From the NCBI GenBank assembly GCA_964477345.1, contig CAYZDL010000001.1, positions 63,924 to 127,923 of the forward strand: DNA of 64,000 bases. Direction: 5' to 3'. Under the pieces are notes generated by a model. That model was given only the letters and a program-made list of their open reading frames with translations, did not search any database and was not told the origin of the DNA. The stretch comes from an uncultured bacterium (lineage in GTDB: Bacteria > Chlamydiota > Chlamydiia > Chlamydiales > 2-12-FULL-49-11). Below are positions 22,117 through 23,430 of this stretch, piece after piece. Every line of letters begins with the position of its first letter. Position 1 is the first letter of the stretch. The position numbers were made by a program, and so were the translations under genes.

Positions 22117-22419
22117 TTATTCATTACGAAAATAAGCGTATCGACCACTAAGGGGGATTTTTTTGGGAAAATCAAGGCGTTCAATTTTTCGATCAACGAC
22201 ATAAGCAGGGAAATTAGCGCCTACTTTATTGCATACGTTATGAGCAAGTTGAGCAAATTCATCGGTTACCTCTCCATCGTAAAAAAATGCAAAGTACAGT
22301 ATTTTTCTCTCCACATCAATATTAACCGTAACAGAGCGAAGAGAAGGTACTACGGAACCGAGTAAAGCCTCTTGCGTGTCTAACATAGCACGAGAATGTC
22401 TATAATGTTTCTCCTCCAT
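22117..22419 (-). CDS. immunity-like small protein, type A, copy 2
   Basis: 100 aa. The first 71 aa are identical to copy A1. It is homologous to type B through the core '...LRxVxVxxDVxxKxLYxxFFYDGExxD...IERxDxPxKIP...YAYxRxE'. Confidence 0.6.
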   Translation of the reverse strand: MEEKHYRHSRAMLDTQEALLGSVVPSLRSVTVNIDVERKILYFAFFYDGEVTDEFAQLAHNVCNKVGANFPAYVVDRKIERLDFPKKIPLSGRYAYFRNE

Positions 22420-22429
22420 AAATTCTCCT

Positions 22430-22744
22430 TTACGGATTTAGTGGTTCTTTTCGCAGATAAGCGTATTTACCTCGAGTGAAAGGGATTTTCTTAGGATAAT
22501 CAACCCTTTCTATCGTATTATATGTAAAATATTCTGATAGATTTGCATCCGCTTCAGTGGCAGCAATGCTGGCTAAATCAAAAAGTTTATCAGATATCTC
22601 GCCATCATAGAAAAAAAAGTAATAAAGGGTTTTCGTATCTACATCTACATCAACAATAACAGCTCTAAGAGCTGGCGTTACTGCATCAAGTAGTGCAATT
22701 TGCATACACAATAAACCTCGTTCCATTTTAGAAAATTCTTTCAT
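22430..22744 (-). CDS. immunity-like small protein, type B, copy 2
   Basis: 104 aa with an ATG start. It is a paralogue of the ORF directly following the toxin-like gene and lies 10 nt upstream of A2. Confidence 0.6.
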   Translation of the reverse strand: MKEFSKMERGLLCMQIALLDAVTPALRAVIVDVDVDTKTLYYFFFYDGEISDKLFDLASIAATEADANLSEYFTYNTIERVDYPKKIPFTRGKYAYLRKEPLNP

Positions 22745-22793
22745 TATTACTTTATCCTTAGGGCATAAGTCATTTTAATAGAAACCATTCCAT

Positions 22794-23105
22794 TTAGAAA
22801 CGCTGCTCCTTTCGTAAGTAAGCATATCGACCACTCAGGGGGATTTTTTGGGGAAAATCAAAACGTTCGATTTTTCGATCAACGGAATAGTCAGGGAAAT
22901 TAGCGCCTACTTTATTGCATACGTTATGAGCAAGTTGAGCAAATTCATCGGTTACCTCTCCATCGTAAAAAAATGCAAAGTACAGTATTTTTCTCTCCAC
23001 ATCAATATTAACCGTAACAGAGCGAAGAGAAGGTACTACGGAACCGAGTAAAGCCTCTTGCGTGTCTAACATAGCACGAGAATGTCTATAATGTTTCTCC
23101 TCCAT
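22794..23105 (-). CDS. immunity-like small protein, type A, copy 1
   Basis: 103 aa, 10 nt downstream of B1. Confidence 0.6.
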   Translation of the reverse strand: MEEKHYRHSRAMLDTQEALLGSVVPSLRSVTVNIDVERKILYFAFFYDGEVTDEFAQLAHNVCNKVGANFPDYSVDRKIERFDFPQKIPLSGRYAYLRKEQRF

Positions 23106-23115
23106 AAATTCTCCT

Positions 23116-23430
23116 TTACGGATTTAGTGGTTCTTTTCGCAGATAAGCGTATTTACCTCGAGTGAAAGGGATTTTCTTAGGATAATCAACCCTTTCTATC
23201 GTATCGTCTGTAAAATAATCTGATAGATTTGTGCCCGCTTCACAGCTTGCAACACTAGCTAAATCAAAAAGTTCATCAGATATCTCGCCATCATAGAAAA
23301 AGAAGTAATAAAGTGTTTTAGTATCTACATCCACATCAACAATAACAGCTCTAAGAGCTGGCGTTACAGCATCTAGTAATGCATTTTGCATACATAATAA
23401 AGCTCGTTCCAATTTAGAAAATTCTTTCAC
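23116..23430 (-). CDS. immunity-like small protein, type B, copy 1 (GTG start)
   Basis: By homology to B2 (MKEFSKMERG...), the start is the GTG at 23430 (VKEFSKLERA...), 2 nt after the toxin stop codon. The listed 127-aa ORF extension overlaps the toxin gene. Confidence 0.6.
   Translation of the reverse strand: MKEFSKLERALLCMQNALLDAVTPALRAVIVDVDVDTKTLYYFFFYDGEISDELFDLASVASCEAGTNLSDYFTDDTIERVDYPKKIPFTRGKYAYLRKEPLNP

Follow-up and report, generated by a model that had tools for sequence, protein, structure and literature searches.

Tandem immunity genes next to a predicted Ntox50 toxin in an uncultured chlamydia: a probable old duplication and recent gene-conversion tract

We analyzed a 64,000-nucleotide (nt) stretch of DNA from an uncultured environmental member of the Chlamydiota (positions 63,924 to 127,923 of contig CAYZDL010000001.1, GenBank assembly GCA_964477345.1; the whole stretch is referred to as the window), with emphasis on a minus-strand cluster of five open reading frames (ORFs) that encodes a predicted polymorphic toxin and four small proteins of immunity type. 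The order of transcription is toxin, B2, A2, B1, A1, so that two B–A gene pairs follow the toxin gene in tandem, and the two pairs share a block of DNA without a single difference. The features of the cluster are listed below, with positions counted from the first letter of the window.

23433–25166, minus strand: predicted polymorphic toxin of 577 residues, with signal-peptide-like sequence, hydrophobic segment, tetratricopeptide-repeat (TPR) carrier (about residues 1–470) and C-terminal Ntox50 domain (ORF, Pfam, match to 8hhj_B)
23454–23726, minus strand: Ntox50 domain of the toxin (MafB2-CT-like, predicted RNase A fold), with motifs KQGKH, DHRNY and GVHIVP (Pfam and Protein Data Bank, PDB, matches)
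23116–23430, minus strand: immunity gene B2, 104 residues, GTG start, 2 nt after the toxin stop codon, MafI2 family (PF26541), presumed cognate immunity gene
22794–23105, minus strand: immunity paralog A2, 103 residues, 10 nt 3' of B2, preceded by an AAGGAG ribosome-binding site
22745–22793, minus strand: inter-unit junction, in which 22745–22759 is a toxin 3'-end remnant and 22760–22794 is non-homologous
22430–22744, minus strand: immunity gene B1, 104 residues, ATG start, 88% identical to B2 (12 differences)
22117–22419, minus strand: immunity paralog A1, 100 residues, 94% identical to A2, with the differences in residues 72–100
22109–22759, no strand assigned: repeat unit 1, 651 nt, homologous to unit 2
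22795–23445, no strand assigned: repeat unit 2, 651 nt, taking in the 3'-terminal ~13–15 nt of the toxin gene
22206–22518, no strand assigned: identity block, copy 1, 313 nt, with B1 codons 77–104 and stop, spacer, and A1 codons 1–71
22892–23204, no strand assigned: identity block, copy 2, 313 nt, with B2 codons 77–104 and stop, spacer, and A2 codons 1–71

The two units align gap-free at an offset of 686 nt, with 47 mismatches over 651 nt (92.8% identity). An earlier note on this DNA had described a tandem duplication of 686 bp; the period is indeed 686, but homology is confined to 651 nt, and 35 nt of non-homologous sequence (22760–22794) separate the homologous units. Homology to the rest of the window was looked for in this 35-nt junction and none was detected, and a search of the junction and of the 500-nt spacer 3' of A1 for degraded cassettes returned nothing. 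The toxin gene upstream takes part in the unit homology with its last 13–15 nt, and a 15-nt copy of that 3' end is found before B1 (22745–22759: AAGGATAAAGTAATA vs AAGGATAGAGTAATA). This remnant is the only trace of the toxin within the array, where no fragment of the toxin C-terminal (CT) domain is present.

As judged by pairwise comparison of the units, 22206–22518 and 22892–23204 are identical over 313 nt, and this block is maximal, the bounding mismatches being at 22204/22205 and 22519/22520. The perfect repeat reported in the earlier note is thus exact and cannot be extended. All 47 mismatches are located in the flanks, 18 in the 97 nt on the left (18.6%) and 29 in the 241 nt on the right (12.0%), and an even spread of mismatches across the unit is ruled out. 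At the flank mismatch rate of 13.9% (47/338), the probability of 313 consecutive mismatch-free nucleotides is P = 4e-21, and the longest mismatch-free run among 100,000 random placements of 47 mismatches was 180. Read on the minus strand, the block comprises the last 28 codons of B with the stop codon and 2 additional nt, the 10-nt spacer, and codons 1–71 of A plus 1 nt; it starts at B codon 77 and ends at A codon 71, with the stop codon and the spacer in between, and ignores the gene boundaries, as had been claimed. The divergence outside the block is also distributed as the note had it, with differences between A1 and A2 only in the C-terminal third (residues 72–100), and with different start codons in the two B genes, ATG in B1 (22744) and GTG in B2 (23430).

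The flanks and the core differ in age. Nei-Gojobori estimates for the flanks give a synonymous divergence (dS) of 0.39 and a nonsynonymous divergence (dN) of 0.09, with dN/dS of 0.23 (0.19–0.26) and half of the codon differences being synonymous; over this range of dN/dS (0.19–0.26) the flanks show no positive selection. The core contains 67 synonymous sites at which dS is 0, where ~21 synonymous differences would be expected at the flank rate. The flanks are old and have evolved under ordinary purifying selection, and the core is young. A core dS of 0 against a flank dS of ~0.39 excludes a single duplication followed by uniform divergence, and a recent homogenizing exchange is required. This agrees with the view in the earlier note that the array is not a simple recent duplication. 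Of the two processes offered there, gene conversion or unequal crossing-over, a recent homogenizing exchange is retained, but unequal crossing-over alone cannot create identity; the core must have been converted non-reciprocally, or else the contiguous inner segment 22519–22891 must have been replaced.

The reading that we favor, with a probability of about 0.6, is that the B–A pair was duplicated long ago and that one gene-conversion tract arose recently in this Ntox50/MafI2 immunity array. The B–A unit would have been duplicated in tandem, and ~15 nt from the end of the toxin gene with it (flank synonymous divergence ~0.4). A recent non-reciprocal exchange between the units, that is, intrachromosomal gene conversion, would then have overwritten 313 to ~316 nt of one unit with the sequence of the other, from the 3' quarter of B across the spacer, which holds the ribosome-binding site, to codon 71 of A, and would have erased the differences in this region. 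The N-terminal three-quarters of B, with the predicted toxin contacts, would have been left out of the tract.

The toxin is assigned through its C-terminus. Residues 481–571 match the Pfam family Ntox50 (PF15542) with E = 3.2e-27 and 95.5 bits (cutoff 22.2) over 91 of 92 profile positions, and residues 479–575 match the toxin chain of the MafB2 complex, 8hhj_B, with E = 2.4e-8. MafB2-CT, an RNase whose fold resembles that of RNase A, is neutralized 1:1 by MafI2 (PMC9970974). At the N-terminus, the translation contains a signal-peptide-like sequence and a hydrophobic segment; the TPR matches are weak, and a Pfam scan of this part found nothing besides them, and no DUF1020 domain of the kind present at the N-terminus of MafB. 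The closest relatives of the carrier, P0173 and P0174, are 59–60% identical over the first ~440–470 residues and have unrelated C-termini without Ntox50, and another relative, P0180, ends in DUF4258. The genes directly 3' of carriers of the P0173/P0174 type encode a different family of small proteins with no match to MafI2. Polymorphic toxin systems are defined by a carrier that is conserved, a tip that varies and an immunity gene matched to the tip, and as judged by these comparisons the locus is probably such a system in the sense of Zhang et al. 2012, with an immunity gene that co-varies with the tip.

Toxicity of MafB2 requires His335, His402 and His409, and the substitution H402A abolishes toxicity in Neisseria (PMC9970974). 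The equivalents of His335 and His409 are kept in the window toxin, and the equivalent of His402 is a tyrosine (WGKIYYAKDGVHIVP, residues ~555–570); 8 of 11 chlamydial relatives have His at this position. In CdiA-CT(Ykris), Tyr or Thr is found in the role equivalent to His402, and in the MafB2-CT/MafI2 pair the toxin His402 is hydrogen-bonded by MafI2 Thr62 (both PMC9970974). At the position of MafI2 Thr62, the toxin-adjacent B2 has Cys and B1 has Thr. The tyrosine in the toxin together with the cysteine in B2 could reflect co-variation or, alternatively, an attenuated toxin.

The family identity of the four small proteins is based on precomputed labels, a PDB profile search and a fold search. 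Pfam and NCBIfam scans of the four proteins gave no match, the Pfam release used being older than PF26541 (MafI2); this label is carried as a precomputed annotation by the window proteins P0001, P0002 and P0004 and by all 50 homologs. With a profile of 38 family members, the top PDB match was the MafB2 immunity protein, 8hhj_A (E = 2e-4). The AlphaFold (AF2) model of B1 has a mean predicted local distance difference test (pLDDT) score of 91.8, with helices at residues 6–18 and 52–67 and strands at 26–34, 39–46, 73–80 and 93–97, and fits the MafI2 fold, in which helices 1 and 2 are placed on one face of a four-stranded sheet. A Foldseek search with this model returned 8hhj_A as the only significant match (template modeling, TM, scores 0.74/0.77; E = 1.8e-6), the next match having E = 1e-2. 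MafI2 genes follow Ntox50 toxins in at least 18 loci, as B2 does here, starting 2 nt past the toxin stop codon. Based on the profile matches and the model, the four small genes are putative immunity genes of the MafI2 family and fold.

A and B paralogs share 44–48% amino-acid identity, and the A-type proteins make up a MafI2 lineage that sits on a long branch and is known from no other genome. A third B-type protein, P0003, is encoded on a different NCBI contig of 34,865 nt and is 88% identical to B1; it is B2-like over residues 7–63 and B1-like over residues 67–76. Such a mosaic points to exchange between B alleles, be it at a second locus or in a related strain.

The predicted toxin-binding face of the B proteins is where B1 and B2 differ. 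MafI2 contacts its toxin through helix 1 (residues 11–18), helix 2 (55–67), a loop (70) and strand 3 (74–76) (PMC9970974). We mapped these 14 contact positions onto B by profile alignment with an offset of +1, and the mapping retains MafI2 Thr62, Glu63, Glu70 and an acidic residue at 55. The corresponding residues of B are kept as acidic or polar: D56, T/C63, E64 and E/D71. The A proteins have Q, N, K and A/D at these four positions, and in their helix 2 Gln/His/Asn/Lys take the place of the Asp/Ser/Thr/Glu found in MafI2 and B; with these substitutions, the A-type proteins may not neutralize the adjacent toxin in the manner of MafI2. Six of the 12 differences between B1 and B2 fall at contact-equivalent positions (hypergeometric P = 0.0012 for the whole protein, P = 0.0045 for residues 2–76), and all 12 are located within helix 1, helix 2, the following loop or strand 3 of the B1 model. 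The conversion tract, as proposed, ends just past the predicted contact region of B. The mapping and the model suggest that: (i) B-type proteins would most likely neutralize the RNase by placing helix 2 and strand 3 over the RNA-binding groove, by homology with MafB2-CT/MafI2, and (ii) B1 and B2 may differ in toxin specificity. That selection would have kept the two specificities, one cognate and one "orphan", apart is speculative.

Related loci were collected with a genome-contig profile search using a 10-sequence alignment, which returned 18 loci, none of them from the source species; the same type of search with a 4-sequence alignment returned nothing, and a metagenome profile search returned one distant locus only. 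The MafI2-like family is found almost only in metagenome-assembled genomes (MAGs) of environmental Chlamydiota, and each of the 18 chlamydial MAG loci consists of an Ntox50 toxin gene followed by one to four MafI2 genes. In 8 of the 18 (L011, L014, L015, L017, L019, L021, L022 and L027), truncated toxin-CT fragments are interspersed among the immunity genes, and by their gene content these are classical orphan cassettes.

Two of the loci, L015 (Rhabdochlamydia) and L016, contain tandem duplications of a unit of two immunity genes that start inside the toxin 3' end, as in the window. The duplicated segments measure 852 nt (88.7% identity) in L015 and 823 nt (86.5%) in L016, and their identity is patchy, the longest exact runs being 108 nt (permutation P<5e-5) and 67 nt (P = 0.0016), respectively. 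Divergence in L016 peaks where the N-terminus of the first immunity protein is encoded, with a dS of 1.38 vs 0.21 elsewhere, which mirrors the situation in the B genes of the window. In a neighbor-joining tree, the window B copies pair with each other, as do the A copies; the first-position genes of L015 are nearest to different genes from other genomes. The suggestion in the earlier note that the array is an actively recombining cassette is supported to the extent of at least one event here and mosaic duplications in two other chlamydial MAGs, and no further.

Other properties of the related loci were observed in passing. The first immunity gene lacks a stop codon in L015 (5146–5925 and 5998–6771), L016 (5109–5810 and 5932–6633) and L028 (3537–4325), and the reading frame stays open across a toxin-CT fragment in L015 and L028, and across a linker in L016, into a second MafI2 domain; the resulting ORFs of 234–263 residues may encode polyimmunity fusion proteins. 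In L033 (4001–6242) and L035 (1882–3884), ~60%-identical carriers end in an unannotated C-terminal domain with a shared VMPGKPHS motif, and each is followed by a protein of ~116 residues without a Pfam match, the two being 39% identical to each other; domain and small protein probably constitute an undescribed toxin/immunity pair. A Transposase_mut gene adjoins L035. L011 (CAJCHM010000084.1) and L016 (CAMCLJ010000013.1), whose Ntox50/MafI2 loci are of the typical chlamydial kind, come from MAG records that bear the titles "Acidobacteria bacterium" and "Chlamydia trachomatis", respectively, and these titles are probably binning or labeling errors.

Independent assemblies were available from Logan, in which contigs are built with k = 31; in a de Bruijn graph, a contig stops where two different flanks enter one shared sequence. 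Logan contigs of run SRR27639470 match the window at 100%, as does a contig of a second run, SRR12762304. Contig L032 corresponds to 20572–22235 with 100% identity; beyond the mismatch at 22205 it continues for exactly 30 nt, that is, k-1, and stops there. These contigs speak against a gross misassembly or misjoin of the window, and they are compatible with a few collapsed single-nucleotide polymorphisms inside the core or with more than two units. Logan has no record of a complete copy of any of the four immunity genes, consistent with the repeat breaking that assembly, and exact look-ups returned no record for A1, for P0003, for the toxin or for the 41-residue cut product predicted for A2. 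Further breaks of the Logan assemblies are seen at the ends of contigs L029, L032, L030 and L031: one leaves a gap of 19 nt at 20552/20572, and another, at 25181 or 25000, falls within the 5' end of the toxin gene or immediately upstream of it. A single mismatch separates L030 from the window, and low coverage of the toxin gene, or variation in it, is possible.

An alternative route to the same pattern is a very recent duplication of the B–A unit, after which the inner segment 22519–22891 (373 nt) was replaced by a ~14% diverged allele from another strain or locus. The replaced segment would then comprise the A2 C-terminus, the junction and the B1 N-terminus, and the identical core would be the remainder of a young duplication. 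Since the order B2N–core–A2C–junction–B1N–core–A1C puts the diverged stretches side by side, a single patch would suffice. The P0003 mosaic indicates that both B haplotypes exist elsewhere and recombine, and the hyper-diverged segment of L016 (dS 1.38), set in an otherwise similar duplicate, looks like an import. However, a patch of this kind needs an external donor carrying the A–junction–B arrangement, and none was found in any collection searched, where the closest relative with DNA has ~66% amino-acid identity; recombination end points would also be required within sequence that is 12–19% diverged. We consider a patch unlikely, though it deserves to be taken seriously, and prefer gene conversion, which needs no outside donor. 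Sequential displacement, in which a new toxin tip with B2–A2 recombined upstream of a resident B1–A1 pair that was retained as orphans, is improbable. The 15-nt toxin remnant before B1 and the toxin-CT fragments ahead of orphan immunity genes in relatives are what such displacement would leave, and the mechanism is documented for immunity arrays in Vibrio cholerae's type VI secretion system (T6SS; PMC5361080). The identical core would in that case be the downstream crossover region or the product of a later conversion; displacement accounts for the origin of the array but not for zero divergence in the core, its remnant is 15 nt here vs ~130–150 nt in relatives, and in the set of all known sequences B1 pairs most closely with B2, and A1 with A2.

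That the block is an artifact of assembly, through collapse of near-identical cores, a chimeric join of strain variants or a copy number other than two, has a slightly smaller probability than displacement. The source is apparently an unannotated draft or MAG, with a contig of 189 kb and unnamed proteins, a 313-bp exact repeat exceeds typical k-mers, repeated passes through the inner segment would leave the contig sequence unchanged, and the absence of a full-length immunity gene of this organism from Logan would fit. On the other hand, Logan contigs from two runs agree fully with the window, L032 ends 30 nt into the core as if two real and different left flanks enter a shared sequence, and the junction between the A2 end and the B1 start is a unique stretch, without which the contig could not have been built. 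Analogous two-unit arrays occur in two MAGs from unrelated studies, and the collapse of a few single-nucleotide polymorphisms would still leave a contrast of ~14% vs at most ~1%. Selection at the nucleotide level, with the core frozen as a structured RNA or regulatory element, is very improbable. The block holds the ribosome-binding site of A, and folding of the minus-strand RNA gives z = -1.87, but 5 of 100 shuffles fold equally well, homologous regions in other lineages are ~50–60% identical at the protein level, and all ~67 synonymous sites would have to be frozen. Given this z value, the absence of Rfam matches from the region and the lack of conservation at the nucleotide level in other lineages, the structured-RNA reading of the core was rejected.

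Several points weigh against the proposal of an old duplication with a recent conversion tract. The age of the duplication is derived indirectly, from the divergence of the flanks, and the copying may have run in either direction; a recent duplication with an imported patch needs equally many events and explains the pattern equally well; and the identity of the core may be exaggerated if the assembler collapsed a few real differences. With respect to function, the toxin has Tyr at the toxicity-critical position of His402, and its RNase activity is a prediction; the A-type proteins are without the acidic helix-2 residues used by MafI2; and the interface argument is a hypothesis that depends on homology mapping at ~20% identity to MafI2.

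The wider neighborhood is chlamydial in character. The window encodes a chlamydia-type isoleucyl-tRNA synthetase (IleRS) whose nearest relatives are 77–80% identical, with Chlamydiota or Simkaniaceae MAGs at ~63%, and a full-length transfer-messenger RNA (tmRNA) gene is located at 15190–15576 on the plus strand (Rfam RF00023, 138 bits). Two EamA-family transporter genes (20727–21611 and 25279–26157, both plus strand) flank the toxin/immunity cluster, and the 500-nt spacer between the first of them and A1 (21612–22116), also enclosed by the EamA pair, is apparently non-coding. The neighbors of the locus include the EamA transporters, an esterase and an alanine racemase; mafA is not among them, and no secretion-system genes were identified there. 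The composition profile shows no foreign island at the locus, and a scan of the region for promoters and terminators found sites no commoner than in shuffled sequence. In a sister lineage, L036 (IleRS 77% identical; 1–10000 compared with window 14746–24745), synteny is restricted to the signal-peptidase/CT021/glycosyltransferase side of ileS and is lost on the tmRNA/toxin side, and no toxin/immunity genes are present within 10 kb.

The closest described system is the MafB2-CT/MafI2 pair of Neisseria meningitidis (PDB 8hhj; PMC9970974), with which the locus shares the Ntox50 domain, the predicted RNase A-like fold, the KH, HRNY and GVHIVP motifs, the immunity fold (TM 0.74–0.77) and an immunity gene directly 3' of the toxin. 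In contrast to the Neisseria maf island, the window has neither a DUF1020 domain nor a mafA neighbor, and unlike MafB the carrier is a signal-peptide/transmembrane/TPR protein specific to Chlamydiota. The immunity proteins of the window are ~20% identical to MafI2, His402 is replaced by Tyr, and four paralogs are arranged as a duplicated pair. Zhang et al. 2012 listed Ntox50 in chlamydiae, with no immunity partner assigned at the time, and described polyimmunity loci and proteins (PMC3482391).

Recombination between tandem immunity paralogs via conserved blocks has been described for esaG of Staphylococcus aureus and tipC of Streptococcus (Garrett et al. 2022, PMC9484751). As in those arrays, non-identical immunity paralogs are strung out beside a polymorphic toxin and divergence is concentrated at the (here predicted) toxin-binding surface, whereas the protein families, the secretion system (type VII, T7SS, for esaG/tipC) and the phylum are different, and the window has only two units and one detectable event. 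The T6SS arrays of V. cholerae (Kirchberger et al. 2017, PMC5361080) likewise contain orphan immunity genes 3' of an active pair, each behind the remnant of an effector 3' end; in the window, unlike there, the retained unit is a close paralog (88–94% amino-acid identity) and the toxin remnant measures 15 nt. Orphan CT/immunity cassettes of the contact-dependent inhibition (CDI), Rhs and Maf systems (PMC3482391; Koskiniemi et al. 2014, PMC3967940) resemble the relatives of the locus, with truncated toxin-CT fragments followed by immunity genes. The window array differs from them in having no toxin-CT fragment, and therefore cannot swap the toxin tip. The type of event proposed here has already been described for immunity arrays; what is new is the toxin/immunity family and the phylum, and no new mechanism is involved.

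It is tempting to regard the array as an immunity repertoire shaped by selection, in which B1 and B2 would neutralize different Ntox50 variants, one of self and one of a rival, recurrent conversion would spare the contact part of B, and the design, in which a unit of two immunity genes is duplicated and its first gene is hypervariable, would have arisen repeatedly in Chlamydiota (in the window, L015 and L016). We hold this to be doubtful at present; if true, it would point to RNase-based warfare between obligate intracellular chlamydiae that share a host cell. The locus provides a base-pair-level record of recombination in an Ntox50/MafI2 immunity array, a type of system barely described in environmental Chlamydiota, and adds to the evidence that immunity arrays evolve through homologous exchange between paralogs. 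Comprising one toxin domain and four proteins, the locus is also small enough for a test of whether specificity may diverge at the toxin-binding face while the rest of the array is homogenized.

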